Part shown: one piece after another, positions 2,185-17,290 of the stretch
Layout of the letters: every line of letters starts with the position of its first letter
How positions within the stretch are numbered: position 1 is the stretch's first letter
Translations under genes and position numbers: made by a program
The notes under the pieces: model-generated
What the model saw: only the letters and a program-made list of their open reading frames with translations
Databases searched by the model: none
What the model was told of the DNA's origin: nothing
Virus record (IMG/VR): IMGVR_UViG_3300042270_000151
Span: 112,192 to 132,191 of that record
Strand: one strand, 5' to 3'
DNA: 20,000 nucleotides
From: an uncultured virus (IMG/VR IMGVR_UViG_3300042270_000151)
Lineage: Duplodnaviria > Heunggongvirae > Uroviricota > Caudoviricetes

Positions 2185-4260
2185 ATGGAAAAGACGCGCA
2201 ATAATCTCCGACACTTGGGCACTATGGCGGCTATATCGCCCATGCTTAAGTTTAACTCGGGCAGCCGCATGCAGATGGTCTGCTCACAGATCTCTCAGGC
2301 GGTGATACCGAATAAACCGGATACCCCTCGTATCCTAACTGGGTTAGAGGATCAACTCGCAACCCATACGTTTGGGGTGAAGGCACCTGAGGACCTGCAG
2401 GTCTATGCAGTGCTCCATAAGTATACGGGCGGTGTAGGGGCGAACTCCATTGCCTATAACCCACTGGTTACGGTAATTTACCGTAGTTTGGAAACGGGGT
2501 ATTTTGGAGTCTTCCATGTAGAGACCTATCAGAACCAACTGGAACGTGTACATGAAACCTTCGGGTTTAAGTATAAGTTCACCCCCCTCATGCATCAGCT
2601 TGCACGGGGAATGACTCTCGATAGAGGGGATGTACTTTCGTATAGTCCTACCGTTGAGAATGGGTACTACTCCAATGGTCTCAATTGTAATGTTGCGTAC
2701 ATGTCCGTACCGGCTACAATTGAGGATGGGTTCGAGGTATCCCGTGACTTCCTTGAACGCGCCACACCCATTGCTACGGGTACCCGTGTAGTAGAATGGG
2801 GTCGTCACTACTATCCAATTAACCTCTATGGGGATGACCGGATCTATAAGCCGTTCCCTGAGATTGGAGACACTATACGTGAAGATGGGCTAGTCTTTGC
2901 ACTGCGCAAATACGACCCTATGTTAGATGGGGTTGAAATGTCCCGTAGGGAGCTTCAGACTCCGGATCTGACGCATGATAAGTTAACCTATGGTGTACCG
3001 GGTGCTAAAATCATCGATATTACGGTACACACCACGACCAATGAGGGTCGCAGAACGTACCATACGCCATCGGGTATGGAGGATGTCGCTAAGAAGTATG
3101 CTGATCGGCATGCGCAGTATTATGACCGCATCGTGCAGGTTTATCATCAGATTAAACAGGAGACCAATTACAAACCGAATCTAACCCCAGAGCTTCTGAC
3201 ACTGATAGAGCGGGCTATGGGCGTGCGCCCTAATGAAGCGGTTAAGCGTCTAGAGTCGGTGAAGGGTCGTAAAAACTCTATCCAGAAAACATACCGTGCT
3301 AACCCCATGGATGAGTGGCGAGTAGAGGTCATGTACGCGCACCGTTTCACTGCCGACTTGGGTGCTAAGATATCAGACATGGGGGGCGGCAAAGGCGTGG
3401 TTTGCGGTGTACGGGAAAGCCATGAAATGGCGGTGGATGACTTCGGTAACCGTGCTGACGTTATTGTGTACGGTAAGGGCGCAGTTGCGCGGCTGAACCC
3501 CGGTCAGTTCTATGAGCAATACATCAATGCGGTGGCACGAGACGTTGCAGGCGATATTCGTCAAATGATGGATGCTGGTCAGAACGAACAAGCCTGGCTA
3601 CATTTTCAGACACTGGTTGCCTGTACCTCTACCGTAATGGAAGAGAATATCCGTGACCTATCCGAAGCAGAGAGGATGGAGGTGTTGGATAGCATTTATA
3701 ACCAGGGTATCTATCTGGTTATCCGTGCAGACGATGAGAAACTTTGTCCCGACTTGTACCGTAAGCTTAAAGCCTTCAGACCACCAAACAAGTCACCGGT
3801 CACCTATGTCAGTCGTACCGGTGAAACGGTTCGCACTAAGGACCCGGTCCTGATTGGTACTAAGTTTATGATTGTACTGGATAAGTTGGATCACAAGCCC
3901 ATGGCGGTTTCTGGTATCTTAAGGCAGCACCATGGTCTGCCAGCAGTACAGAATAAAACTACTAAGCACTCAACTCCATCTAAGGAACAGCCACCTCGTG
4001 TCATCGGGGAAACTGAGTTGCGTAGCCTGGTATCGGTTATCGGTGGCGATGCCGCTGCTGAAACCATGGATTTGGCGACTAATCCAGAAAGTCACCGCAT
4101 GGCGGTCAATTCAATACTGCTATCGGACCGACCTTCAGACATTGAGTGTTTGGTCGATCGAAATGTAGTACCGATTGGTGGGCGTCCGATTAAGTTTGTC
4201 CGACACATCGCCGCGTGTGCCGGATGGGAAATCATTCGTGTCCCCCGACATAAACAATAA
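2185..4260 (+). CDS. rpoB: Non-virion RNA polymerase beta subunit, C-terminal half (phiKZ gp71-73-like), uninterrupted
   Basis: RpoB-like motifs in order: SRMQMVCSQISQAV (RALMGANMQRQAV), NVAYMSVPATIEDG (VAFMPWNGYNFEDS), GAKISDMGGGKGVV (GDKMAGRHGNKGVI), ARLNPGQ (SRMNIGQ), IGETELRSL (FGEMEVWAL). AGGAG RBS. Confidence 0.93.
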   Translation: MEKTRNNLRHLGTMAAISPMLKFNSGSRMQMVCSQISQAVIPNKPDTPRILTGLEDQLATHTFGVKAPEDLQVYAVLHKYTGGVGANSIAYNPLVTVIYRSLETGYFGVFHVETYQNQLERVHETFGFKYKFTPLMHQLARGMTLDRGDVLSYSPTVENGYYSNGLNCNVAYMSVPATIEDGFEVSRDFLERATPIATGTRVVEWGRHYYPINLYGDDRIYKPFPEIGDTIREDGLVFALRKYDPMLDGVEMSRRELQTPDLTHDKLTYGVPGAKIIDITVHTTTNEGRRTYHTPSGMEDVAKKYADRHAQYYDRIVQVYHQIKQETNYKPNLTPELLTLIERAMGVRPNEAVKRLESVKGRKNSIQKTYRANPMDEWRVEVMYAHRFTADLGAKISDMGGGKGVVCGVRESHEMAVDDFGNRADVIVYGKGAVARLNPGQFYEQYINAVARDVAGDIRQMMDAGQNEQAWLHFQTLVACTSTVMEENIRDLSEAERMEVLDSIYNQGIYLVIRADDEKLCPDLYRKLKAFRPPNKSPVTYVSRTGETVRTKDPVLIGTKFMIVLDKLDHKPMAVSGILRQHHGLPAVQNKTTKHSTPSKEQPPRVIGETELRSLVSVIGGDAAAETMDLATNPESHRMAVNSILLSDRPSDIECLVDRNVVPIGGRPIKFVRHIAACAGWEIIRVPRHKQ

Positions 4261-4272
4261 GGAGTAACCCTA

Positions 4273-6228
4273 ATGGCGAACATCTATGCAGCAAGCACCC
4301 TGTGTATGCTGACAGAGAAGGAGGTATGGGCCCTACCTGAGGGCCCTATGGTGGTAGAGTTTGCCGACGGATCCACCTTGGAAACTGGTAAGCGTCGTAC
4401 TGTATTGAGCTGGTACTTTTGGCGTATGCACCGTGAGTTTCCAGGATGCCCTATATTGCCCACTCACCATGTTGGTAATAAATCCCTTACCAAGGGGTTT
4501 GATCAGAAGCTGGGGGCTAAGATTTTCTGGGATGTCTATGAAGGGTATCCGGATAAGCGGGAGAACTTGGTCTGGGAGATGTCAAAGGTCAGCTATGAGA
4601 TACTTAACACCGTCCACAACATCACGGTCGCCCGTCTAGCGGGCTATGTGACAACAGTGGACCTGGAAGATGTAATAGACCTCATGGATGACCCGGTAAT
4701 ACGGGAGGTGAAAGATAAGATCGAAGCGGATGAGATGGAGTTCAAGGAGGGATACGAGCTCATCATGCAGGAGCTTAAGAAGGACAAGCCCTCATTACGC
4801 AATAATGGGGTTGCTAAGATGACCCGTGCGAACCTGCTTTCTGAGAAGCAGTTGGTGCAGTTCATTGGTGCACGTGGTAATACCTTTGCTACGGATGGCT
4901 CTATCTTTATGTACCCCATCAAGAAGTCCTATGCGGACGGGTTCGATACGTTGTACGATAGCATTACGGAATCCCGCAGCGCGTCTCGTGCACTGTTGAT
5001 GAACGATGATCCGCTGAAGGACTCTGAGTACCTGAACCGACGAATGCAGCTTCTTGCAGCTGTCGTGCGCAGTGTCGTGGGGGATGATTGTGGTACACCC
5101 CACACCATCCCATGGTTGGTATCTGAACAGGACATGCATGGCCTTAAGGGTAAGTACCACATGGTCGATGGTCGACCGGTGCTGTTTGATCCTAAGGACA
5201 CGTCATTGATTGGACAGGTCATTAACATCCGTTCTATCACTATGTGTCAGAATGACGATACCGGTACGGTCTGTAAAACGTGTCTGGGACAAATCTCCCG
5301 TATTGTCCCCCCTAGAACCAACGTAGGGCACTTTCTGACAACCGACCCACTGTCCTCACTCTCTCAGCTAATCCTTTCTACGAAGCACGTTGAGACCTCT
5401 CAAGGCGCCTTGTATTTCTCATTGGATGGTGAGGCCGGTAAATGGTTCCGCTATGACCCCGATAACCGGTCAGCGGTTACACTGAAGCGACAGAATGCAG
5501 CGAATACCTTCCTGATTCGCTTTGCTGAAGAAGAGGCCCCTGGCCTTAACAGTGTCCTTCAAAGTGGTGATCCCGCAGGGTTACTGCCGCAGCGTGTATC
5601 CTGTATTACGGAGTTGCAAATTGCAAACGCCGATGGCCACGGGCAGCAGAAAGGGGACTGGAGTATCTTCAACCTGCGTATAGGGGATGAAGGCTCTGCA
5701 CTCTCCTCGGATGTCCTGGAGGCCATTGCCCGTAATGGGTGGAAAACCGTTAACGGCGTTGTGGAGGTACGCTTGGACGGATTTAAAGGTCGGCCGGTCT
5801 TCATTACCCCCAGACGCAGTGAGAGCATGCTGACGTTCCAGCGTCGCATTAAACACTTTGTCTTTGGGTCTGAGGAAAAGGATGAGGCCATTGTCTCCCA
5901 TAAGCACCCCGGTCAGGCGGTGGCGGCAATGAAACGCCTCTTCGATGAAAAGATAAAGGTCAACCTAGCCCATGCGGAAATCTTTGTACGTGCCTGTATG
6001 ACGGTGAACGCCTATGCTAACGACTATCGCCTACCTCGTGGTGGTGATCCATTTGTCTTTATGTCCGCCCGTCGGATTATATCGAACCGGTCCGTGTCGG
6101 CGGCTTTGGCCTTCGAGGGACAGAAGCGGGTCATTCTTAACCATAAGAGTTACTTGACCCATGAGCGTCCAGTGCACCCGCTGGATCCCATTATTGGGGC
6201 CGATGCCCCGTATGTAGATAACCGCTAA
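4273..6228 (+). CDS. rpoC: Non-virion RNA polymerase beta' subunit, C-terminal part (phiKZ gp74-like)
   Basis: Bridge-helix-like SRSASRALL...KDSEYLNRRM; DDCGT; Zn site IRSITMC...VCKTCLG; trigger-loop-like SQLILSTKH. AAGGAG RBS. No DFDGD motif, as expected for a split subunit. Confidence 0.92.
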   Translation: MANIYAASTLCMLTEKEVWALPEGPMVVEFADGSTLETGKRRTVLSWYFWRMHREFPGCPILPTHHVGNKSLTKGFDQKLGAKIFWDVYEGYPDKRENLVWEMSKVSYEILNTVHNITVARLAGYVTTVDLEDVIDLMDDPVIREVKDKIEADEMEFKEGYELIMQELKKDKPSLRNNGVAKMTRANLLSEKQLVQFIGARGNTFATDGSIFMYPIKKSYADGFDTLYDSITESRSASRALLMNDDPLKDSEYLNRRMQLLAAVVRSVVGDDCGTPHTIPWLVSEQDMHGLKGKYHMVDGRPVLFDPKDTSLIGQVINIRSITMCQNDDTGTVCKTCLGQISRIVPPRTNVGHFLTTDPLSSLSQLILSTKHVETSQGALYFSLDGEAGKWFRYDPDNRSAVTLKRQNAANTFLIRFAEEEAPGLNSVLQSGDPAGLLPQRVSCITELQIANADGHGQQKGDWSIFNLRIGDEGSALSSDVLEAIARNGWKTVNGVVEVRLDGFKGRPVFITPRRSESMLTFQRRIKHFVFGSEEKDEAIVSHKHPGQAVAAMKRLFDEKIKVNLAHAEIFVRACMTVNAYANDYRLPRGGDPFVFMSARRIISNRSVSAALAFEGQKRVILNHKSYLTHERPVHPLDPIIGADAPYVDNR

Positions 6229-6240
6229 AGGACGTACCCT

Positions 6241-6450
6241 ATGTTTGTACTGGATACCGGTGCCCGTGTAATCTGCACGGATAAGAAAAGGCGCAAAGGG
6301 GAGTCTAATCCCGCTGCGTTAGAAATCGGTAAAACCTATCGTGTGACGGCGGTGCACACAGATGCTGCCCCAGAGCCATTGGTGGAAGTCGATGGCACAC
6401 TGGGGCAATTTTCGGTCGAACACTTCACCTTTGAATACGTATCACACTAA
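6241..6450 (+). CDS. Small hypothetical protein (69 aa), beta-rich, possibly SH3-like
   Basis: AAGGA RBS; in-operon spacing after rpoC. Confidence 0.7.
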   Translation: MFVLDTGARVICTDKKRRKGESNPAALEIGKTYRVTAVHTDAAPEPLVEVDGTLGQFSVEHFTFEYVSH

Positions 6451-6470
6451 CCACCTAAAGGACTATTACG

Positions 6471-6704
6471 ATGCAAAAGCAACTGATGAATGCTGCCCGT
6501 GAAAAACTGGAACGTCAGTACCAGATCAGCCTCCCCAAGACGCGTGGGGAGCTGGATAATCTACTCAATACCCTGCGTCCAGAGGGACAGGATACACACC
6601 TGTGGGCAGGATGTCGCAGTGCAGTCTCTGAAGCACTGGAGATCCCAATGTCGGATACCCTTTTTCAGACCTGGTTTACTGCGACGGTTAATCAGAAGGC
6701 ATAA
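6471..6704 (+). CDS. Small hypothetical protein (77 aa)
   Basis: AAGGA RBS; ends just before a terminator hairpin. Confidence 0.7.
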   Translation: MQKQLMNAAREKLERQYQISLPKTRGELDNLLNTLRPEGQDTHLWAGCRSAVSEALEIPMSDTLFQTWFTATVNQKA

Positions 6705-6715
6705 ATAGTTATAGA

Positions 6716-6756
6716 CATGCACTGGGCGAGCCCAGTGCATGGTCATTATTTTTTAT
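6716..6756 (+). terminator. Intrinsic terminator of the RNAP operon
   Basis: CATGCACTGGG-CGAG-CCCAGTGCATG (perfect 11-bp stem) followed by TTATTTTTT. Confidence 0.85.
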
Positions 6757-6791
6757 TGCCACTAGGGCTAGGCATCCTATAATAGGGGATT

Positions 6792-8765
6792 ATGGCTGTC
6801 ATGGGAGGCAGAATGGTTAAGTTTAAAGTAGACGTCTACAGTCATGGTGTACGTATTCAGGTACATTACCCGAATGAGCGAGAAGCCATCCTTAAGTACT
6901 GTGAGCGACTGGCGATCTTTGAAACCGTCTGGATTCCAAAGCTTAAGCGTCGAGTTAAGAAAACCAAGGCCGTCTTTGCAACGGCTACACATGACCGTAA
7001 AGAGTTTGGATTTCTGAAAGCGGAGATTACAAAGGTTGAGGAGTATCTAAGGGGACTAGGGTACACTAGTAGTGACTTTCAATACACGTACCACGAGCCT
7101 ATTGAAGGTACCCCTATCGAGATAGCGTTGCAGAAGGGAGTAGGGCCTCGCAATGAGGAGCAGGAGTTGGCCATGTCCTTCATGAAGGAAGGTAAGGCCA
7201 TTAACCGTGTACTAAACCTTCCTACTGGCTTTGGGAAGGCACAGCCGCTTTCCTCACAGGTGTTAACACCACACGGTTGGGTCAAAATGGGAGACCTTAG
7301 TGTAGGGGATCCCATTAGCGGACCTGATGGTAGTGAAGGTGTGGTTGTGGGTATCTATCCACAGGGCGTACGTCCAGTATACTGCATCACCCTAGAGGAT
7401 GGGCGACAGTCAACCGCTGACGCTGAACATCTCTGGTATACCATGGAGAAAGGGTTAACGGGTGAGGTGCTAACAACAGCAACCCTCAAGGATCGGGTGG
7501 AGAACGGTCGTGAGCAGTATTTGCCCATACATGTTCCAGATAGCGACTATTTGGAAATGTCTAGGGTTATCGACGTACAGTACGTAGGGGCGGATGAGGT
7601 CCAGTGTATAGAGGTATCACACCCATCTCACCTCTATGTCACAGATGACTTTATCGTGACACACAACACCGCCTGTGGTCTCATGACCACTGCACATTAC
7701 AAGGTAAGAACAGCCTTTGTAATGGCCTCGGGGCATTTTAAAACGTGGATTGACTCCACTAAGTGGGTACTGGACATTGATCACGCTAAGGACATCTGTG
7801 TGGTACAGGGGCGTGAGCATTTGGTGAATCTGGTTAAGTTATCGTTAGCCGGACAGAATGAGTATAAGCTCATCTTTATCTCCATTGCTACCATCCGGGC
7901 CTTTCTCAAGGACTACCTTACAGAGGGATACACCATTGAGGGTGTGACGCCCTATGAGCTATTCCCCACACTAGGCGTGGGCATGCGCATCGTGGATGAG
8001 TCACATGAGAATATCCATGCACTCGTAACCGCCACCACCTTCACGCATGTACGTAGAGCCATCTACCTATCTGCGACACTGGTGTCGGAAGATGAGAAGA
8101 TCAACAACCAATACCTTAAAATATTTCCTATGGAGGATCGTTTTAAAGACGTAAGTCAAAATGAACACGCGCAATGTGTCTCCGTAACCTATAGACTCGA
8201 GCACCCTGACAAAGTGAAGTGTACGGGTACTAAGGGATATAGTCACGTCGCGTATGAGCAGTGGTTAATGGCGAACCGTACCGCGGAGACGCGCTACTAT
8301 GAGTTCATAGAGAGTTTAGCGGAGCAGGCATTCGTCTCAGACTACCAGGACGAACAGAAGCTTCTTATTTTCTGTGCAACCACTGAAATGTGTGAACGCC
8401 TGGCCAGTCGACTGAGTAAGCTCTATCCGCAGTTTAAAACCTCAGCCTATACAGCGTCCTATGCCCCAGAGGTATTGTACGCCAATGACATTATCGTCAG
8501 TACACCGACCTCGGCGGGTACTGGTAAGGACATACCTAACCTAAGGGCCTGTATCAGTACGGTGGCTATTGGTTCGGTACAGCGTAACTTGCAGCTACTG
8601 GGGCGTCTAAGGCCTATAAAGAAATATCCCCATATTGCACCTGTTTACTACTGGCTAACCTGTCTGGACATCCTCCAGCACCGTGAGTACGACGTACGTA
8701 AGCGAGAACAGTTTTCCGGTAAATGCGCCTCTATTGGGGACATGCCGACAAACGTTGTCGTTTAG
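6792..8765 (+). CDS. Superfamily 2 DExH helicase (phiKZ gp75-like) containing an intein
   Basis: Walker A LPTGFGK|T, restored after splicing; Walker B IVDESH; motif III LSAT; motif VI QLLGRLR. Alternative start at 6813. Confidence 0.9.
   Translation: MAVMGGRMVKFKVDVYSHGVRIQVHYPNEREAILKYCERLAIFETVWIPKLKRRVKKTKAVFATATHDRKEFGFLKAEITKVEEYLRGLGYTSSDFQYTYHEPIEGTPIEIALQKGVGPRNEEQELAMSFMKEGKAINRVLNLPTGFGKAQPLSSQVLTPHGWVKMGDLSVGDPISGPDGSEGVVVGIYPQGVRPVYCITLEDGRQSTADAEHLWYTMEKGLTGEVLTTATLKDRVENGREQYLPIHVPDSDYLEMSRVIDVQYVGADEVQCIEVSHPSHLYVTDDFIVTHNTACGLMTTAHYKVRTAFVMASGHFKTWIDSTKWVLDIDHAKDICVVQGREHLVNLVKLSLAGQNEYKLIFISIATIRAFLKDYLTEGYTIEGVTPYELFPTLGVGMRIVDESHENIHALVTATTFTHVRRAIYLSATLVSEDEKINNQYLKIFPMEDRFKDVSQNEHAQCVSVTYRLEHPDKVKCTGTKGYSHVAYEQWLMANRTAETRYYEFIESLAEQAFVSDYQDEQKLLIFCATTEMCERLASRLSKLYPQFKTSAYTASYAPEVLYANDIIVSTPTSAGTGKDIPNLRACISTVAIGSVQRNLQLLGRLRPIKKYPHIAPVYYWLTCLDILQHREYDVRKREQFSGKCASIGDMPTNVVV
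7239..7667 (+). mobile_element. Class 3 (Ala-start, WCT-motif) mini-intein, 143 aa, without a homing endonuclease
   Basis: Block A AQPLSSQVLTPHGWVKMGDL; block B ADAEHLW; block F VQCIEV; block G FIVTHN followed by +1 Thr. Inserted between K and T of the P-loop. Confidence 0.92.
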
Positions 8766-8797
8766 ATAAGGAGGTTCACCCCTCCTTATTTTTTTTT
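8766..8797 (+). terminator. Intrinsic terminator after the helicase
   Basis: ATAAGGAGG-TTCACC-CCTCCTTAT followed by a T run. Confidence 0.85.
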
Positions 8798-8853
8798 GTC
8801 TGGTAGGGTTGGCAAATCCTATTGATACGACCTTTAAAATAAGGAGCACCCTT

Positions 8854-9342
8854 GTGAAAGTTATACTGGTTAAGTCGGTAGGTCAACTCTACCTGGAGTT
8901 ACTGGCCCACCTAGAAAAGAATAAAGAGATTCCTCTGACACTGCAATTTGATACAGTGTTTTTATGGGACACTGAGCTACTAGGTATTCACGACACCATC
9001 GATCTGTTTGCGGGTAAACTGGATATGCAGATCGAGGTACTCTACGATATGCCGGTACACTTTGCAGTGGTATTGGCGGCACTGCCAGTCGAAAAGCGAC
9101 GTTGCATGCCTTCTACTATCGTACACTTTGTACGCCAGACCCAATACGCGATGGGTACCGCAACCGACATTACGGCCACTGGTGAGCAGGTCATTCGGGT
9201 AGAAGAGCGCATTGCATCTATCATCGCTGCTACGACGCGTTTGGAGACAGTTGACATTCGCACCCGCTGTGACCGACATGAATACATGACCGCCGATCAG
9301 GCGATTGAGCTAGGTGTGTTTGGAGGATACGTTCATGGCTAG
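8854..9342 (+). CDS. Degenerate, catalytically inactive ClpP-fold protein (ClpR-like pseudo-protease)
   Basis: GTG start after AAGGAG (8841-8846). The C-terminal half aligns by eye to ClpP: VVLAALPVEKRRCMPST...GTATDI...IIAATT...DRHEYMTADQAIELGV. The Ser, His and Asp triad positions are all substituted. Confidence 0.78.
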   Translation: MKVILVKSVGQLYLELLAHLEKNKEIPLTLQFDTVFLWDTELLGIHDTIDLFAGKLDMQIEVLYDMPVHFAVVLAALPVEKRRCMPSTIVHFVRQTQYAMGTATDITATGEQVIRVEERIASIIAATTRLETVDIRTRCDRHEYMTADQAIELGVFGGYVHG

Positions 9343-9844
9343 AGTCATTGTAGTCGAAGGGGCCATTGAACGTAAAATGGGACGTAAGGTTATAGAAGCC
9401 TTAAGGGACCTAGAGTCGACCGTAGTCGCCCCTATTGTGATGTTGATTAATAGTCCGGGTGGCGACGTTGCAGTGGCACGCTCCATTGTCGATACGATGG
9501 AGGCGATCGAGTCTCCGGTCTATACACTTTCGATCGGTCTAGCCGCTTCAGCCGGCGCACTCTTACTGTGTTCAGGTCAACCGGGTAAGCGATACGCCAC
9601 CGTGAATACTGAGATCATGATACATCAGCCCAGAGGTACCAGCGCTATAATGGCGCCTCGCCTGGAGTACATGAACTATATTAAGGATACCTTATCCAAG
9701 CACATCGCCGATCGATGCAATCGCAGTGAGTCTGAAATTGCAGCATACTGTGAGACTGACTATTACCTAACCGCAGAAGAAGCACTGGCGTTGGGACTAA
9801 TCGATGAAGTTGTGCAACATAATTATCAGCTTGAGGATTATTGA
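9335..9844 (+). CDS. clpP: ClpP-family serine protease (S14) with an intact triad
   Basis: INSPGG, GLAASAG (Ser), IMIHQP (His), ETDYYLTAEEALALGLID (Asp). The ATG at 9335 has a GGAGG RBS and overlaps the upstream gene by 8 nt. Confidence 0.93.
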   Translation: MARVIVVEGAIERKMGRKVIEALRDLESTVVAPIVMLINSPGGDVAVARSIVDTMEAIESPVYTLSIGLAASAGALLLCSGQPGKRYATVNTEIMIHQPRGTSAIMAPRLEYMNYIKDTLSKHIADRCNRSESEIAAYCETDYYLTAEEALALGLIDEVVQHNYQLEDY

Positions 9845-10455
9845 TGTCATTGAAATGGATGGTGTGCGGTAATGCGCGGCATGGGAAGGACACCGTCTCC
9901 CTGTACCTCACCGTAGTCTACGGACTGCAATACGAGTCCTCCTCCTTATTTGTATGTCGGCGGTTTATCTTTGACAGACTTGCCCCCCTCTATGGATATA
10001 CCACTGTAGAGGAATGCTACGCGGATCGAGGTAACCACCGTAAGGAGTGGTTTGACCTGATCGTCGAGTACAATGGGGAGCACCTAGACCGTGTCTCCAG
10101 AGAGATTTTCGAAGAGCACGATATTTACTGTGGTCTTCGAAACATAGATGAGCTGAACGCCTCTAAGGCTAATAAAGCTCATGACTTTGAAATATGGGTA
10201 GATGCCAGTAAACGTAAGCCATTGGAACCGGCCTCCTCCCTAACGATTACGGCGGATGACTGTACCCATTACGTTGACAATAACGGTACGTTAGTAGAGT
10301 TGTTTGAGAACGTGGATGACCTGATGCAAACCGTGGGCACCCATCCAGTTCCCTTTAGCGATTTCAATGTACATGCTATCGAAGTACACCTTCCAGATCC
10401 ACTGGAACGCGCCTACTTTACACGGGCGCTGTTAGACCACCTTGAGCTTGCATAA
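9844..10455 (+). CDS. P-loop kinase, deoxynucleoside monophosphate kinase-like
   Basis: N-terminal GNARHGKDT P-loop; GLRNIDE; C-terminal VDNNGTL typical of phage dNMP kinases. TGATG stop/start overlap with clpP. Confidence 0.75.
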   Translation: MSLKWMVCGNARHGKDTVSLYLTVVYGLQYESSSLFVCRRFIFDRLAPLYGYTTVEECYADRGNHRKEWFDLIVEYNGEHLDRVSREIFEEHDIYCGLRNIDELNASKANKAHDFEIWVDASKRKPLEPASSLTITADDCTHYVDNNGTLVELFENVDDLMQTVGTHPVPFSDFNVHAIEVHLPDPLERAYFTRALLDHLELA

Positions 10456-10457
10456 AC

Positions 10458-10492
10458 TATACTCCCAGAGCCCTAAAGGCTCTGGGAGTATA
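10458..10492. terminator. Bidirectional terminator-like hairpin between convergent operons
   Basis: Perfect 15-bp inverted repeat TATACTCCCAGAGCC-CTAAA-GGCTCTGGGAGTATA filling the intergenic gap. Confidence 0.85.
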
Positions 10493-11062
10493 TTAACTGT
10501 TATTTATTTCTGTCATTAACTCATCCGCTAACTCACCCTCAAGGTGATTAGAGGCGGAGCATGCATTGGTTACCAGCCGATAGGTCTCCACTGGTAAACT
10601 GAGTATGGCATCTAAACCCATGCCAGTTTTCTGTGGGACCTTTAATCGAATCAACCGCCGTATTTCATTCGCATATAGCGAGTACGGAATGGTTTGACTG
10701 GCTGAGGTATGTCGCACCAAAGGCGTAGCGACGTCGTAGACGACGGTGGAGTGGTCGTGGATACCTAAAATTGTTTCATATTGTTCCGCCATTAATAGCT
10801 GGAGTACAATATTGCTCTTAGGCGTCTTTAGCTCCAGTAATGCCTCTGACAGTGCGGTGCTTTGTTTCTTGGATAAGCCAAAATCTGCAAACAAAGTTGA
10901 ATGGGGTGTGGGTCGCTTAAACAGTGCGGTATTCGTGGTTTCTTTCACCACGGTATGACAATGGGGACAGACACGTCCTTTCATGTTGTCCCCATTGCTC
11001 TTCCCGCACAGACAGCTGATTATGGGTTGGTTGAGATAGTGGCCTCGTGTTCCCATTTCCAC
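10493..11062 (-). CDS. Hypothetical protein with an N-terminal CxC-x12-CxxC zinc ribbon; possibly the -1 frameshift extension of the upstream gene
   Basis: 189-aa ORF overlapping the upstream gene in its -1 frame; SCLCGK...GRVCPHC. Start is uncertain. Confidence 0.75.
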   Translation of the reverse strand: MEMGTRGHYLNQPIISCLCGKSNGDNMKGRVCPHCHTVVKETTNTALFKRPTPHSTLFADFGLSKKQSTALSEALLELKTPKSNIVLQLLMAEQYETILGIHDHSTVVYDVATPLVRHTSASQTIPYSLYANEIRRLIRLKVPQKTGMGLDAILSLPVETYRLVTNACSASNHLEGELADELMTEINNS

Positions 11063-12636
11063 ACCATGATGGTAAAAAAATACGCCACCATGTCCATTGG
11101 AATCAGCCCATGTTCTGCTTCAGCCGGATCCAACTGCGGTTCATTACAGGATGGGCATACATAGTTCGGTATACCTGTAAAGGTCACCTGTGCTTCCACC
11201 CGGTGACGGTCAACCGCTTCGATGATGTTCCTCGCTAACGCCTTGTCTTCAGCCAACGTCTCCAATGAGCTGAACAAGGTATCAGTATCTGAAACAATGC
11301 GTGGTTCATCTTCACCCGGCACATGCATCTGGAGGTTCTTTATCCACGCAGCATGCTTTTGCAGACGCAGTGCGTGCTGGTAGTTGCGGATAAAGCTAAT
11401 GCGCTTGGTGCGACGAGTTTCACGGTCCGCATCCGTAATGCGATCCATCGCGGCATTGACCATTTCCATTACCCCGTTAATCCACAGTCGACCTACACGC
11501 TCATAGGTTTCCAGGTTGGGCTGGTGGAAGGCAATTTTTACGATGGCCCCACTGTCAGACAAAGGTGCACTCAAAGGCTCCAAGGTGTTAAATTCATCTT
11601 GATATTCTTCGATCTGCTCGACAGTATGTACATTGTTACCGGCTGACATAAACCGACGCGCCTTCGGACTAACTCGGGTGCGATCCGTCCAGACCACCTT
11701 TTTAAAGTCCAGCAGACTGTCGACTTTAAACTCAATACCGTCAATATCGACTTCCAGGGTAGGATTGTAGTCACACTTACTAGTGCCACTGTTCTTACAC
11801 TTATGGACTGTTGGGTAGCCTGAGGGGTAAATAGATGCCAGAGCACCCGCCAACAGTGCAGGAATATCCATGACCTTCAGCAGTTTCTTCAGAACCGCCT
11901 TATCCCCGACCATCCAGCCACGTATGTTGGTGGCAATAACGTGATCGAGGATGAAGTCCACCACCTCAGAGATGATGTTCACATCCCCACCTGAAAACAA
12001 CATGCCGCCGGTTTCATACCCGATCTCAGCGCGGGTCTCTGTCAAGGCTAGGTTCAGTGAGAGAATCTCTGAGGTCTTAAAGTTACCTAGGGTTAGTACC
12101 AGACCTGACGACCAGCAGGGTACCTTAGTTGGCTTACCAATACCCAGTGCATTCTGAATCGCCATAATGGCAGAGGGCCCGGACATAGCCTGACTGCTAC
12201 CTAGTGCAACGTTCTGACCACCGATACGGATAGGACCTTTATCAGAATCAATCGCCTGTACAAACTCAGCTCCTTCACGGGTGAAGAGGTCGGCGTACTG
12301 TCCATGCCGCCAATGTCCAAGATAGGTCTGGCGAAGGTGGTCCGCATAAGCCTGTACCGCAGAGCGTGCTGCGGATTCAGACATGTTCGCCTCGGCTTCC
12401 AGCGCATAGTCACGAATCAGACGATCGAGGGTCTCAACGGTTGTTGTTTCCATGGGTACTGGGAACACCCAATCGCGTACTCGAATACCCGGTTCTGCTG
12501 AAAGGTCTTTGAAGGGGTTAGCCTCCAGGATAACGGTAGGTTTATGGGTTGCTGTACTGGACTCTTCACCAACCACAGCGTCTTGAGTAGGAGTCTCTTC
12601 GGTGCCGTTGAATGGATTCTGTTCTTCAGTGCTCAT
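11020..12636 (-). CDS. Large hypothetical protein (phiKZ gp77 position) with a C-terminal CPSC; possible tail/baseplate assembly chaperone
   Basis: ~538 aa from the ATG at 12636 (AAGGA upstream; overlaps the previous stop). Cys clusters HKCKN...SKC and VCPSC. The function is an inference. Confidence 0.8.
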   Translation of the reverse strand: MSTEEQNPFNGTEETPTQDAVVGEESSTATHKPTVILEANPFKDLSAEPGIRVRDWVFPVPMETTTVETLDRLIRDYALEAEANMSESAARSAVQAYADHLRQTYLGHWRHGQYADLFTREGAEFVQAIDSDKGPIRIGGQNVALGSSQAMSGPSAIMAIQNALGIGKPTKVPCWSSGLVLTLGNFKTSEILSLNLALTETRAEIGYETGGMLFSGGDVNIISEVVDFILDHVIATNIRGWMVGDKAVLKKLLKVMDIPALLAGALASIYPSGYPTVHKCKNSGTSKCDYNPTLEVDIDGIEFKVDSLLDFKKVVWTDRTRVSPKARRFMSAGNNVHTVEQIEEYQDEFNTLEPLSAPLSDSGAIVKIAFHQPNLETYERVGRLWINGVMEMVNAAMDRITDADRETRRTKRISFIRNYQHALRLQKHAAWIKNLQMHVPGEDEPRIVSDTDTLFSSLETLAEDKALARNIIEAVDRHRVEAQVTFTGIPNYVCPSCNEPQLDPAEAEHGLIPMDMVAYFFTIMVWKWEHEATISTNP

Positions 12637-13021
12637 CGTTGATAATTCCTTGTACATCAATGTTCAGTCCTGCATCGGGTACAGCCCGTGCGGTAAAGGC
12701 ATTCGCCATCGGTACAATTTCATCAAAGAGACGATCTTTGACGTCTGAAATCTCGACAAACGATTTCAGGTACAGCGGATGATCGTCATCAGATACATAG
12801 GTCATGCCCTTGGGCACCTGTGCCAGTGTCTCGGTAAGCGTCTCCCTGACCTCAGTGAGTGCTTGTGCTAGCTCATCATCATACTGCGTTTTATCCTGCT
12901 GCACCACGGCTACCATACCTGCAGCGATGTGACGAACAATGTCATCACAGCATTTCGCTAGCTCTAAGATACTGCTCCACTCTGCCAGCGGCATTGCGTC
13001 TTGGGGGGTGTGCTGTTCCAT
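12626..13021 (-). CDS. Hypothetical helical protein (131 aa)
   Basis: ATG at 13021 preceded by GGAG. The longer 13162 start in the track runs through intergenic AT-rich DNA. Confidence 0.8.
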   Translation of the reverse strand: MEQHTPQDAMPLAEWSSILELAKCCDDIVRHIAAGMVAVVQQDKTQYDDELAQALTEVRETLTETLAQVPKGMTYVSDDDHPLYLKSFVEISDVKDRLFDEIVPMANAFTARAVPDAGLNIDVQGIINDEH

Positions 13022-13290: not shown

Positions 13291-14094
13291 ATGGATACGT
13301 TATTTGATCGCATTTCCAGTTTTATACCCTTAGAGCATCTCAGTGTATTTATACAGACAGAGCAGTTACTGCAGGGGGTAGGCTATACCGACCATGAACT
13401 CGACCTAGAAGAAGCCGATGTAGGGTTAGAGGAAAGTAACGACATTATCGCCAGCATTAATTACCGCTACAGCGAGCACCTAGAGCGTTACCTCAGTGGA
13501 TTAGGGGTATGGCTCAATGCAGAGGAGTCTCACCGCTTGGATCACCTCATTCAATTAGCCGAAGCCTGCACTGTCCTTACAGACCCCCTCTTGGTGGATG
13601 TTAGCCTAGCACTCGACCCTGAAGCAGTGGATGCAAATGAGCGACTCATTTCGGCGCTGGTACATATAAATGACCTTAGTATCCATCAGCTCAGATCCTT
13701 AATCGGATTCACAGATGGTCGTCTGTTAGATGCCTATACGGGCATAGAGCGTATTGAGCCGTACGTCAATGAAGGGGAGGAAGCAGAGGCACGGTTAAAA
13801 CACGCGATCACATCCGAAGAAACCGGACCAGCCTTAGACTTTATCCGCACCCGTGGCCGACTACCTATTCATTTTAAGGCCTCAGCCCGTGCCCTCTACG
13901 TCACTCTGAATGATCTTACCCCTAAAGAGGCTATACGGCAGTGGTACTTACTGGCCCTCGCCTCTGAACACCCCACTGAGGCCTTAGAAGACATCCTCAG
14001 TCAGGCTATCGAGCAATATGTGGAACCCGAACTCCACCCCGTATTCTACCGTGAACTTACCCTTCAGTTAGGTACTCGCCATGACCCTGTTTGA
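13291..14094 (+). CDS. Acidic hypothetical protein (phiKZ gp79 position, possibly virion-associated)
   Basis: 267-aa ORF with AGGAG RBS; overlaps the start of the vRNAP subunit gene. Confidence 0.8.
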   Translation: MDTLFDRISSFIPLEHLSVFIQTEQLLQGVGYTDHELDLEEADVGLEESNDIIASINYRYSEHLERYLSGLGVWLNAEESHRLDHLIQLAEACTVLTDPLLVDVSLALDPEAVDANERLISALVHINDLSIHQLRSLIGFTDGRLLDAYTGIERIEPYVNEGEEAEARLKHAITSEETGPALDFIRTRGRLPIHFKASARALYVTLNDLTPKEAIRQWYLLALASEHPTEALEDILSQAIEQYVEPELHPVFYRELTLQLGTRHDPV

Positions 14095-15343
14095 GTATTT
14101 TGTACTGGCATACCGCCACCGCTTTATTTACAAGCGCCATTGGCTCCTCAGGGCCTTTGCCATTGTAGGTGAAACCCCTTTAAATAAACACCGAGAAATC
14201 GGCGACTTCTACATCGCAGACGGTGCAGCTTATACAGTAAACGAGGACGGGGACGCCACCATCATTGATGGCTATATCCAAGGCTCGCCCCTGTTTAACT
14301 ACAGGGAACCTATTACGGTGCCTCCAGGTATCTTCCCGATTGTTAAGGAATCTGTAGAGACCTACTACTCTACTCTGCTTACAAACCTTATCGTTTTCGA
14401 ATACGCGTTTACCGATGCGATTCCGTATCAGAACCAACGCTTAAACGGTAAATATATCGATAAGCTGGTCGCTAAGGCCCTAACCGAGAAGACCGTTACC
14501 GTAGAACAGTATCGTGCCTTTACTCGAGCCATCTCGATGATGACGGCCCTAGCGAATGCCGTGGTACCCTCTGCTACCCGTAAGGCCATTATCCCACCCA
14601 GCGATATGGCCGAACGGCGACAAGCGGTACTCGAGAAGTATAAGGGTCAACTTCATGACCCTGCTATCATTGCCAAGGTAGAAGCCGAACTCGTAGACTA
14701 CTACCGCACATATCTGGAAGGCGATGACATTAATGAGTTCATGCTTAAGCCTAAGGATATGGAGGTATCCCTAAAGCGCACCCACATTATGTTCGGGGGT
14801 GAGCCTACACTGGAGGATCCCTCTAAGTATGAGCTGGCCATTCCATCACTGCGTGAAGGGTGGGATATGAAACATCTCCCCATGATGGTCAACTCACTAC
14901 GTATGGGTTCCTATAACCGTGGTGCCTCTACCGCACTGGGGGGTGAAGCGGCTAAGTTCTCAGCCCGTATCTTCCAGAACACGAAATTGGTTGAAGACGA
15001 CTGTGGGTCTACTGTGGGCATCACCTTCCCGGTTACGGAATACAACAAAGATAAGTTTGTAGGACGTTACCGATTTAAAGGTAAAGATCTTATCCCGATA
15101 GAGGCGGGCGAACTCGACAACCTGGTGGGTAAAACCATTACTATCCGTAGCCCTATGACCTGCCATACTGACCATGGTAACTTCTGTGGTGTCTGTATGG
15201 GTAAGCTTGTAACCGACTCCAAAATCGGACTAGGTCCACAAGCCTCTGCCGTAGGTAGCGCTATACTCCAATCCTTCCTAGCTATGATGCACGGCAATAG
15301 ACTAGAGACTCGTAAGTATGACTATCTGAATTCATTGACTTAA
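14081..15343 (+). CDS. rpoC: Virion RNA polymerase beta' subunit fragment (phiKZ gp80-like)
   Basis: RMGSYNRGASTALGG (bridge helix), EDDCGST, IRSPMTC...NFCGVCMG Zn site, FLAMMHG trigger loop. This is a second beta' C-part, paralogous to 4273..6228. Confidence 0.9.
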   Translation: MTLFEYFVLAYRHRFIYKRHWLLRAFAIVGETPLNKHREIGDFYIADGAAYTVNEDGDATIIDGYIQGSPLFNYREPITVPPGIFPIVKESVETYYSTLLTNLIVFEYAFTDAIPYQNQRLNGKYIDKLVAKALTEKTVTVEQYRAFTRAISMMTALANAVVPSATRKAIIPPSDMAERRQAVLEKYKGQLHDPAIIAKVEAELVDYYRTYLEGDDINEFMLKPKDMEVSLKRTHIMFGGEPTLEDPSKYELAIPSLREGWDMKHLPMMVNSLRMGSYNRGASTALGGEAAKFSARIFQNTKLVEDDCGSTVGITFPVTEYNKDKFVGRYRFKGKDLIPIEAGELDNLVGKTITIRSPMTCHTDHGNFCGVCMGKLVTDSKIGLGPQASAVGSAILQSFLAMMHGNRLETRKYDYLNSLT

Positions 15344-15460: not shown

Positions 15461-17290
15461 ATGAGTAAAAAGTCGATTATACGGAATGGCTCCCCGGCAC
15501 CGGTAGAGGGGTACTATCAGTCAAAGGTATATCCGGAGGTGTATGTTTCTAAATCAGGGTCTATTATACGGAGAGATGATCACACTGAGCTACCTATTAG
15601 TGTGACGGATGGTCGGTACTATGTATTCACCTATGACGCTGACTACAAGAAGAAGCGGATGTGTTCTGTCGGTAAAATAGTCGCATCGACACTATTGCCT
15701 CAAGCGCCACATGAGGGGTCGATGGTAACGTACATTAATGGCGATACAGCGGACTACGGGTTAACTAATTTACGGTGGGGGGCTAACAACAAGTATGTCA
15801 ATAAACAGAACGTTACTTTAGTGCGACGGGATGTAGGATATGACGTTAACCGCCACCGCATTTTGGTTAGTCCCTCGCCAGAAGGCTATGAGGGATACCA
15901 GTGTGCGCAGAACCCATCTTTTCTAGCGGTTAGTCGGGATGGCAGTAAGATCGTTAACCTTAAGACAGGCAAGCTGTTGACACCAGTTAAAAATGGACAA
16001 CGGTTAAGGGTTACGTATTATGATTCGGAGTTAAAGCAGGGCAGGGCAATCGACGTACTTAGACTAGTGGCTGAAGCCTATGTGTTTAACGATGCACCAG
16101 AAACACATGTGTACGTACATCCCATTGATGGTAACCCCTTGAACGTCGTACCTGAGAATCTATATTGGTCGAAGTCCCCTAGGGCAAGTGAAGCCGATCG
16201 GCTAATGCAATTTCAACGAATGGCGGCTGCGGTAGGGGACGGTGAGAATGAGGGACTGGCTACGCCGCGTGAGATAATGTTTCACCAGTATAAGGAACCG
16301 GTAGAATCTAAAGACTATCCTGGGCATTACGTTTCGGATATGTATCCATGGGTAGTCGTCTCTTCAGATGGCAAGTCGGTCGTTGACATAAACACCGGAA
16401 AGGTAAAGGCACAATCTGTCATAAATGGCTATAAGACGGTCCATACCTTTAACTCTAGAACCGGCGCAAAGGGCACGGTAGGGGTACACCGCATTGTAGC
16501 CAGTGCGTTTAAACAACCTGACCATGAGGGTCAAACTCATGTTAACCACATTAACCTTATCCGAGACGATAACCGGTACGTCAACCTAGAGTGGGTTACG
16601 CAGGGCGAGAATATAGAGCACGCGCACTTCTATTCTCTAAGTAATGGTAACTTACGTCCTGTAAAGGCACTGGACATTCGCAACGGCAGTGTCTCCGTGT
16701 ACGAGAGTGCGTTAGAGTGCAGTCGTCAACTAGGGATTGATAAGTCTACACTCTGGGGTATGCTAGAGCGCCGAGAGCTTTATCCTTGGCAGAAGACTCA
16801 CATCTTTATATACCTGGATGAGCCTTGGCCTCGTATGGATTTGATTGTAAATCCTAAAGAGCTCGCTAAGAATAGAAGCCATAGGGTAGAGGCGTGGAAT
16901 GTAGTGGAGGACAAGGTTATTAGTGCAGAGGGACATACGGAGATTGCGAAGGAGTTAGGGATGAGTCGGGCGAGTATTCAGAGCTATTTGCGTCGAAAGA
17001 ATACCCACGTTATGAATGGCTACGTATTTCGATATACGGATAGTGGAGTAGAGTGGCCGAGTCGAGAGGAGGCATTAGCGTACATGCGTGAGAGTGATAC
17101 GCGTGCGGTTTTAGTGCATATGGAATCGGGTGAGGTGAGCGTCTATCCGACGAAGAAAGCAGCCGGTGAGGTAGTGGGGATGAATAAGACAGACGCGTCT
17201 AGATGGTTTAGGCGGGGTGAGTGTGTAGCGGGCTATAAGCCATACCCCTATACTGAGTATATGGAGAAACAGAATAATGCTGCCCTATGA
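15461..17290 (+). CDS. Free-standing HNH homing-endonuclease-like protein with three HNH-type modules and three C-terminal NUMOD1/IENR1-like HTH repeats
   Basis: Intact module VHRIVASAF...VNHINLIRDDNRYVNLEWVTQGENIEH, two degenerate upstream copies, and repeats such as VYESALECSRQLGI. GAGGA RBS. Confidence 0.85.
   Translation: MSKKSIIRNGSPAPVEGYYQSKVYPEVYVSKSGSIIRRDDHTELPISVTDGRYYVFTYDADYKKKRMCSVGKIVASTLLPQAPHEGSMVTYINGDTADYGLTNLRWGANNKYVNKQNVTLVRRDVGYDVNRHRILVSPSPEGYEGYQCAQNPSFLAVSRDGSKIVNLKTGKLLTPVKNGQRLRVTYYDSELKQGRAIDVLRLVAEAYVFNDAPETHVYVHPIDGNPLNVVPENLYWSKSPRASEADRLMQFQRMAAAVGDGENEGLATPREIMFHQYKEPVESKDYPGHYVSDMYPWVVVSSDGKSVVDINTGKVKAQSVINGYKTVHTFNSRTGAKGTVGVHRIVASAFKQPDHEGQTHVNHINLIRDDNRYVNLEWVTQGENIEHAHFYSLSNGNLRPVKALDIRNGSVSVYESALECSRQLGIDKSTLWGMLERRELYPWQKTHIFIYLDEPWPRMDLIVNPKELAKNRSHRVEAWNVVEDKVISAEGHTEIAKELGMSRASIQSYLRRKNTHVMNGYVFRYTDSGVEWPSREEALAYMRESDTRAVLVHMESGEVSVYPTKKAAGEVVGMNKTDASRWFRRGECVAGYKPYPYTEYMEKQNNAAL

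Follow-up and report, generated by a model that had tools for sequence, protein, structure and literature searches.

Why would a bacteriophage carry two ClpP-like genes in tandem, one with an intact catalytic triad and one without? The question is raised by ORF1 and ORF2, two overlapping open reading frames (ORFs) on a 20,000-nucleotide (nt) stretch of viral DNA, hereafter the window, which makes up the final 20 kb of a viral contig of 132,191 bp (IMG/VR record IMGVR_UViG_3300042270_000151; estimated completeness ~47%). We favor, at about an even chance, the reading that their products are two co-assembled subunits of a phage-encoded ClpP/ClpR-type protease. The parts of the gene pair are listed below with their positions in the window.

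8764–8801, plus strand: terminator-like hairpin after the helicase gene (11-pair stem at 8764–8791, then a T-run)
8841–8846, plus strand: Shine-Dalgarno sequence AAGGAG of ORF1, 7 nt 5' of the GTG at 8854
8854–9342, plus strand: ORF1, a 162-amino-acid (aa) ClpP-fold candidate pseudoprotease (ClpR-like), from GTG at 8854 to TAG at 9340–9342
9322–9327, plus strand: Shine-Dalgarno sequence GGAGGA of ORF2, in the 3' end of ORF1 and 7 nt 5' of the ATG at 9335
9335–9342, plus strand: 8-nt overlap of ORF1 and ORF2, ATGGCTAG, comprising the ORF2 start and the ORF1 stop
9335–9844, plus strand: ORF2, a 169-aa ClpP with an intact triad, from ATG at 9335 to TGA at 9842–9844

ORF2 matched the Pfam family CLP_protease (PF00574; MEROPS S14) over profile positions 14–181 of 182 (E = 7e-43, 147.1 bits; cut-off 20.2), and phmmer against PDB sequences returned a match at 2.7e-27; by sequence it is closest to cellular ClpPs (41% identity). 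Alignment to solved ClpPs placed the triad at Ser72 (AASAG), His97 (IHQP), and Asp142 (ETD), with codons at 9548, 9623, and 9758, and the AlphaFold2 (AF2) model (predicted local distance difference test [pLDDT], 88.9) has its elements in the same order as the ClpP fold. Based on these comparisons, ORF2 is predicted to be a ClpP-type peptidase. The ORF2 handle has a 4-residue gap relative to B. subtilis ClpP and, in our alignment A5, to 28 of 28 cellular homologues, and ORF2 reads E-T-D at the ClpP D-R-D position, such that Thr replaces the sensor Arg. Residue 3 of ORF2 aligns to residue 27 of B. subtilis ClpP, leaving no axial loop and no helix A; the N-terminal extension is found in all 28 cellular homologues of A5 and neither in the window clade nor in a pair on a 202-kb viral contig (L073). 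All four distinct active partners that we aligned lack the N-terminus and have a handle 2–5 residues shorter, which is not so in the ordinary viral and cellular ClpPs of that alignment.

ORF1 matched the same Pfam family in its C-terminal half only (profile positions 90–174; E = 1.2e-10, 42 bits; cut-off 20.2). At the Ser, His, and Asp positions it has Val68 (DMPVHF), Val93 (HFVRQ), and His142 (DRH), with codons at 9055, 9130, and 9277, and it keeps a full-length handle motif, GTATD, together with the D-R pair. It too begins at about strand beta-1, without an axial loop or helix A. Because the reading frame is open for only 7 codons 5' of the ORF2 ATG and for only 15 codons 5' of the ORF1 GTG, both N-termini are truly missing, not hidden by miscalled starts. 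The AF2 model of ORF1, based on a 13-row alignment, had a mean pLDDT of 92.6, and in a Foldseek search of the PDB its top matches were only ClpP chains (7m1m, 6cfd, 4ryf, 9p53, and others), with a template modelling score for the query (TMq) of 0.83–0.86 over 163–170 columns at ~21–23% identity. By this model ORF1 is a complete ClpP fold, and by its residues at the triad positions it is a non-peptidase homologue. A new active site in ORF1 was considered and rejected: its invariant Asp47 is the counterpart of a structural Asp shared by all ClpPs of A5 (Asp53 of ORF2).

The initial annotation of the window, made from the nucleotide sequence alone, had described much of this, and its description holds: two overlapping ClpP-fold genes (ORFs, Pfam matches, and the 8-nt overlap), the second with Ser, His, and Asp, a handle about four residues shorter, and Thr for Arg; the first without a triad, with GTATD and D-R kept; and both starting near strand beta-1. 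The ClpP fold that it had anticipated for the first gene was recovered in the structure comparison. Viral ClpP-like proteins in BFVD were also matched by ORF1. Among these are A0A7G8AM63 and A0A7G8AM64, adjacent accessions of 174 and 164 aa with TMq values of 0.89 and 0.78 to ORF1; they are probably another dead/active pair, from a cultured phage.

The arrangement of the two genes suggests that their products are made together, as the genes overlap and are predicted to be coupled in translation by the ribosome. The junction ATGGCTAG is the same in loci L076 and L077, and tight junctions of a dead and an active copy also occur in L073, in L006 and L007, and, by table coordinates, in the Vibrio phage BONAISHI, whose genome table lists ORF86 as “Clp protease subunit” and ORF87 as ClpP at abutting coordinates, with no discussion or experiment in the parts of the paper available to us (PMC6207643). 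Between the helicase gene and the pair stands the hairpin with its T-run (8764–8801).

Does the pair travel together? Using tblastn, the RNA polymerase (RNAP) beta subunit of the window matched 309 phage records, every one at <60% identity; the best were the Vibrio jumbo phages C-ZP2022, pir03, and Yong (36–37%), followed by phiKZ-type Pseudomonas phages (~33%). Because of these matches, the source element appears to be a distant phiKZ-like (chimallivirus-type) jumbo phage. A nucleotide search with positions 8700–10500 against the phage collection gave no match. An active, short-handled ClpP lies immediately downstream of a dead copy in all eight other loci with visible context, namely L003, L004, L005, L073, L076, L077, L006 (C-ZP2022), and L007 (Yong XC31), of which L003 and L004 are identical to the window across the pair. 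In C-ZP2022 and Yong XC31 the order is RNAP beta, beta', helicase, dead ClpP, active ClpP, as in the window, and the RNAP beta of the window is only ~36% identical to those of the Vibrio phages that share this synteny. The dead copies of these two phages, annotated as “hypothetical protein” (161 or 189 aa), gave a Pfam ClpP match at E = 0.0076 or none; a hidden Markov model (HMM) of the dead family matched them at 6e-12 and 9e-9. In L073, the dead copy (6001–6489) adjoins the active ClpP (6489–6986). Matches of dead copies by tblastn were found in pir03, sm033, and four Yong phages, and the pir03 match also lies over an annotated Clp subunit.

Ordinary viral ClpP genes are arranged differently: the dead-family HMM found an abutting dead copy in 0 of 62 loci outside the window clade. 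These loci are the 65 viral ClpP loci from a pattern scan with active partners, minus three of the window clade; the dead-copy scan of the 65 used E ≤0.01 and 3-kb flanks, with a few loci short upstream. In the 62 loci the HMM matched the ClpP gene itself only; the one exception, L030, has another ClpP-like ORF, on the opposite strand. Between subclades the dead copies have diverged beyond the reach of BLAST: tblastn with ORF1 returned one record, which was unrelated. Searches with the dead-family members P0003 and P0005 returned no viral locus, and a search with the alignment of the P0014 group returned one viral locus (L073) and no match among metagenome contigs. Taken over the loci with context, the ClpP pair appears to be inherited as a unit.

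Using phmmer with ORF1 over 1.84 billion representative sequences, we identified 23 proteins at E ≤0.001. Twelve full-length matches, the majority of exactly 162 aa, share 24–85% identity with ORF1 and form with it the dead-family alignment of 13 rows. Left out were P0010 (1146 aa, seven partial stretches, no Pfam family) and P0012, P0015, and P0017–P0024 (partial or C-terminal-half matches). The triad is absent in 13 of 13 members (Ser in 1/13, His and Asp in 0/13). Every member has the handle Gly (GTxTD) and the counterpart of the structural Asp of ClpP; D-R is kept in only two of the 13.

Selection on the dead copy was estimated by the Nei-Gojobori method as the ratio of nonsynonymous to synonymous divergence (omega). 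For ORF1, omega was 0.105 against L005 (39.7 synonymous and 16.3 nonsynonymous differences; synonymous divergence [dS], 0.44), 0.069 against L076 (dS 1.31, near saturation), and 0.028 against L077; for ORF2, the values were 0.056 and 0.043, with the L076 comparison saturated. These ratios indicate that ORF1 is under purifying selection. The initial annotation had named neutral evolution or loss in relatives as signs of a decaying duplicate; the dead copy is instead present beside its partner in the eight surveyed loci, and with omega at 0.03–0.11 and a triad that is dead family-wide, we rejected decay as an explanation. As a separate observation, dS against L077 differs between the two genes (0.10 for ORF1 and 0.33 for ORF2), which suggests mosaic exchange in the region of the pair.

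In a quick maximum-likelihood tree of 52 rows, with long branches flagged, all 15 dead copies, including those of C-ZP2022 and Yong XC31, fell on one side of a branch with a support of 100 in the Shimodaira-Hasegawa-like approximate likelihood ratio test (SH-aLRT), a topology that does not fix the dead clade's point of origin. Four of five active partners grouped at a modest SH-aLRT of 87, and the L073 partner was not placed. Identity to the Vibrio-phage counterparts was 15–21% for dead copies and 29–31% for active partners. ORF1 is thus best described, as far as these alignments go, as an ancient, selected, catalytically dead ClpP copy, and it would be a well-supported viral pseudoenzyme kept across deep divergence (RNAP beta identity, ~36%).

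What could a dead copy contribute? The conserved difference between the two proteins is in the handle, which is full-length in the dead copies (Gly in 13/13) and shortened in 4/4 active partners. In the reading we favor, ORF1 and ORF2 would co-assemble into one ClpP-like chamber, for which ORF2 would supply the Ser-His-Asp site and ORF1 the full-length form of the handle (strand beta-9, GTxTD), lost from ORF2. Because the handle is full in one protein and shortened in the other, both would be required for the contacts, equatorial or between subunits, by which the chamber is held together and its active sites are aligned. With axial loops and helix A missing from both subunits, the chamber would be gate-less and open-pored. 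Most likely it would work without any Clp ATPase and digest peptides as well as nascent or unfolded proteins, in the manner of N-terminally deleted or ADEP (acyldepsipeptide)-opened ClpP. Its targets would probably be cytoplasmic host or phage proteins, as the pair goes with replication and transcription genes and not with head genes.

Binding between the two proteins is inferred mainly from their coupling, their co-inheritance, and selection on a dead enzyme that keeps oligomerization elements. A two-chain prediction of ORF1 with ORF2 reached an ipSAE (interaction prediction score from aligned errors) of 0.46 (0.46, 0.42, and 0.48 in the runs), with the best of three controls at 0.00; contact agreement among runs was at least 94%, and partner pLDDT was at least 88. 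In the calibration set, 116 of 157 solved complexes passed, as did 2 of 215 mismatches; values of ≤0.60 comprise only 18 of those 157 complexes, yet both of the passing mismatches.

Several points weigh against a two-subunit protease. At this level of ipSAE, the prediction offers weak support for co-assembly, and its passing may reflect likeness and not binding, because ClpP-ClpP complexes have already been solved. A mixed ring and stacked rings are indistinguishable here because the prediction returned no interface, and heptameric rings built from ClpP without helix A are putative. ORF1 and ORF2 are 23% identical, over 56 residues only. The pairing count covers loci with DNA context, and 11 of the 13 dead-family members (from ENA, Logan, and NCBI) lie outside it. 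The faster divergence of the dead copies also fits a looser, regulatory role. A Clp ATPase may be encoded elsewhere in the genome, given that the contig is ~47% complete. Finally, the initial annotation had proposed that the losses in the two proteins are complementary, and this stands for the handle and falls for D-R and Thr: the latter complementarity is not conserved and is specific to the window clade, because D-R occurs in only 2/13 dead members and the Vibrio-phage active partners read DRD or ERD, so that the Thr of ORF2 is not conserved either.

The first alternative is that ORF2 alone is the whole protease, as a homo-oligomer, and that ORF1 tunes it from outside the barrel as a pseudoenzyme in its own right, for example as a substrate trap, adaptor, or inhibitor. 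ORF2 keeps every catalytic residue and shares 41% identity with cellular ClpPs, the predicted heteromer is weak, and dead copies diverge much faster than active partners, as adaptors and regulators often do. We nevertheless regard this as unlikely. ORF1 keeps the oligomerization elements of ClpP, including a full handle with an invariant Gly, on a core fold with a TM-score of 0.85; the handle deletion is in ORF2 only and is common to 4/4 partners; and adjacency is strict, with translational coupling, in 8/8 loci.

A second alternative is that the complex is ATPase-driven after all, through noncanonical docking of a host Clp ATPase or a phage AAA+ protein. Cellular ClpP relies on its N-terminal axial loops and helix A both to close the pore and to engage ClpX/ClpA. 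The LYINSPGG motif contributes a docking-pocket aromatic, which we take to be Tyr62 of E. coli ClpP and important for IGF-loop and ADEP docking; at this position, four active partners have Leu, Phe, Val, or Pro. With the loops missing and the pocket residue variable, the complex would not be expected to dock Clp ATPases canonically. The initial annotation had remarked on the lack of a Clp ATPase gene in the window, and the observation extends further: no AAA_2 (Clp-type ATPase) match was found across the whole 132-kb contig. Two PF00004 AAA matches on the contig both lie outside the window. One is a classical-clade AAA ATPase of 362 aa (contig positions 68951–70039; L074 positions 931–2019; PF00004, 1.1e-11; phrog_14322), the nearest solved relatives of which are Afg2, p97, and BCS1. 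This protein also has an uncharacterized N-terminal domain and a C-terminal tail ending in KGFGYMGH. We examined it as a candidate partner, since it is encoded on the contig and half of the genome is unseen, and rejected it on its phyletic distribution, which does not follow the ClpP pair: 127 phage records, phiKZ-type Pseudomonas phages foremost, contain homologues of its AAA domain, and among the ORF2 matches listed the Pseudomonas ones are PA5oct-like, with no phiKZ-type phage. With no AAA_2 match, no loops for ClpX/ClpA, and no conserved pocket aromatic, we consider an ATPase-driven complex improbable.

The pair might, third, be a virion- or assembly-associated protease, such as a second head-maturation, inner-body-processing, or injected protease. 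The best PHROG matches of ORF2 are indeed families named “head maturation protease” (phrog_94, 3.5e-26), and ClpP-fold prohead proteases likewise lack the ClpP N-terminus. The neighbors of the pair, however, are RNAP, helicase, and kinase-like genes and not head genes; ORF2 consists of a 169-aa ClpP domain alone, unextended by scaffold or capsid sequence, and is closest to cellular ClpPs; and ORF1, with its 15 open codons upstream, has no N-terminal leader. In addition, the sections of the pir03 paper available to us name just the active gene of the pair and, separately, a prohead protease of the T4 type (PMC7765460), and in this related phage the head-maturation role would therefore already be filled. 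A Peptidase_S77 search for a prohead protease on the contig of the window gave no match, and the control likewise matched no genome. We assign this role a low probability.

Equally doubtful is that the pair, or ORF1 alone, targets host Clp, with the dead subunit joining host ClpP heptamers to poison or reprogram ClpXP/ClpAP: the GTATD handle and, in this clade only, D-R of ORF1 resemble cellular ClpP, and the ClpPs of some jumbo phages, which are patchily distributed, have been proposed as probably deployed against the host (Iyer et al. 2021, PMC7824862, in the part available to us), but ORF1 is only ~21–23% identical to any solved ClpP, lacks the helix A and N-terminal loops that add ring contacts, belongs to a family in which D-R is found in 2/13 members only, and would be invariably coupled to its own active partner for a reason that poisoning leaves unexplained.

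If ORF1 and ORF2 do form a two-subunit protease, the architecture would be new for a well-studied enzyme, with no gate, no ATPase docking, and catalysis and structure split between two subunits. Normally the ClpP chamber is kept gated and does no harm in the absence of its ATPase; its forced opening by ADEP antibiotics kills bacteria. Tentatively, and with distinctly less confidence than in the pairing itself, we suggest that a clade of phiKZ-like jumbo phages, of the nucleus-forming type, may build a constitutively open, ATPase-independent ClpP chamber from an active and a dead subunit, as a natural counterpart of ADEP-deregulated ClpP; during infection such a chamber would degrade unfolded or nascent host proteins, or particular defense or division proteins of the host, and its dead subunit would have been shaped by evolution to take over the handle contacts and to control the active sites. 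The complex would then be a possible phage weapon against host proteostasis or defense proteins, as well as a minimal system in which to ask what the handle and the N-terminus give to ClpP assembly. The pair is directly testable, as it is carried by cultured Vibrio phages (pir03, C-ZP2022, BONAISHI, and Yong).

The surroundings of the pair include split genes for the beta and beta' subunits of a multisubunit RNAP at 2185–4260, 4273–6228, and 14081–15343, and the PHROG scan that identified them also found a helicase and HNH endonucleases in the window. Three further features are as follows.

9844–10455, plus strand: P-loop (GNARHGKDT) gene resembling deoxynucleoside monophosphate (dNMP) kinases, third of an apparent operon with the pair (phrog_38514, 6.8e-27; phrog_139 dNMP kinase, 6.7e-08)
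10493–11062, minus strand: 189-aa protein with an N-terminal CxxC...CxxC zinc-ribbon-like stretch (phrog_12109 match)
15461–17290: 609-aa homing endonuclease with HNH_3 and NUMOD-like domains and a C-terminal helix-turn-helix, directly after the RNAP beta' fragment gene

The ATG of the kinase-like gene shares 1 nt with the ORF2 stop (TGATG), and its product had no Pfam match. In relatives this gene is elsewhere or absent and not beside the ClpP pair, and for that reason it is probably not part of the protease. The zinc-ribbon-like gene is kept by position beside the pair in Vibrio phages; phrog_12109 is a function-unknown family, and the N-terminus of the protein weakly matches a PHROG named “RNA polymerase beta subunit.” The product of 15461–17290 is a large free-standing homing endonuclease within the RNAP cluster.

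Comparison with L005 revealed a sharp recombination boundary at the end of ORF2 (window 9844–12660 versus L005 4988–7807). The helicase, ORF1, and ORF2 differ at dS 0.33–0.44, and the next three genes (kinase-like, orf189, and orf546; ~2.8 kb) are DNA-identical. L005 also carries, at 2871–3740 between the helicase gene and ORF1, an HNH_3/NUMOD1 homing endonuclease gene that is not in the window and is a mobile insertion. The helicase gene itself (6792–8765) contains a 143-aa mini-intein at 7239–7667, placed exactly in Walker A (GFGK / intein / T); its first residue is Ala, its last residues are THN, and the next residue is Thr. The insert matched no Pfam family; among solved structures the best matches were to DnaB mini-inteins and the gp41-1 intein (6bs8, E = 9e-14). 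Its Trp/Cys/Thr pattern (HLWYT, VQCIEV, VTHN) looks to us like that of a class 3 intein. The helicase of C-ZP2022 (502 aa) has no such insert, and that of L073 (824 aa) carries a longer insert.

In the literature searched, which did not extend to subscription journals, we found no study of the ClpP pair or of its dead partner in a phage, and no functional work on the pairs of the Vibrio phages. The initial annotation had stated that no phage example was described; this needs amending insofar as the BONAISHI table lists both genes as Clp subunits, and it stands insofar as the accessible parts of that paper (PMC6207643) offer no discussion or experiment. The Z90 paper, in its accessible part, files a Clp protease under assembly (PMC12837969). 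Within the sources consulted, the active/dead ClpP pair, in its phage-specific, truncated form, is in print only as annotation-table entries (BONAISHI ORF86/87).

The closest known counterparts are the pairs of the Vibrio jumbo phages BONAISHI (ORF86/ORF87), vB_pir03, C-ZP2022 (UKZ10907/UKZ10906), and vB_VmeM-Yong XC31 (QAX96030/QAX96029). Like the pair in the window, they follow the RNAP and helicase genes, abut or overlap, and have dead copies in the ORF1 clade; unlike it, they have DRD or ERD in place of the ETD of ORF2, and the sequences are very divergent. Apart from the BONAISHI table, with its “Clp protease subunit,” the records seen call the upstream gene “hypothetical protein.” Phage prohead proteases (PHROG 94, 2976, and 133) share with ORF2 the ClpP fold, the lack of a cellular N-terminal gate, and a phage origin; they lie in head modules and usually bear scaffold or capsid extensions (profile lengths of 394–668), whereas ORF2 is a bare domain in a replication and transcription neighborhood and closer to cellular ClpP (147 bits; 41%).

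Among cellular systems, the ClpP1P2 proteases of Mycobacterium, Listeria, Streptomyces, and Pseudomonas, which provide top fold matches (9p53, 4ryf, 8xn4, and 7m1m), combine two co-encoded paralogues of the same fold into one protease. Both of their paralogues, unlike those of the phage pair, have full N-termini and triads that are catalytic or nearly so, and these proteases depend on AAA+ partners. In cyanobacterial ClpP3/ClpR and in plastid and apicoplast ClpP/ClpR, an active ClpP is joined by a conserved, co-expressed, triad-less paralogue, the one catalytic and the other structural. The phage pair would resemble these rings in joining an active subunit to a triad-less partner, a likeness that we regard as a functional analogy; the 52-row tree contained no ClpR sequences. 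Cellular ClpP/ClpR keeps its N-terminal loops and helix A and is docked by ClpC or ClpX, whereas the phage proteins are truncated and their contig has no Clp ATPase match, and where ClpR carries insertions, it is the active subunit of the phage pair that carries a deletion, in its handle.

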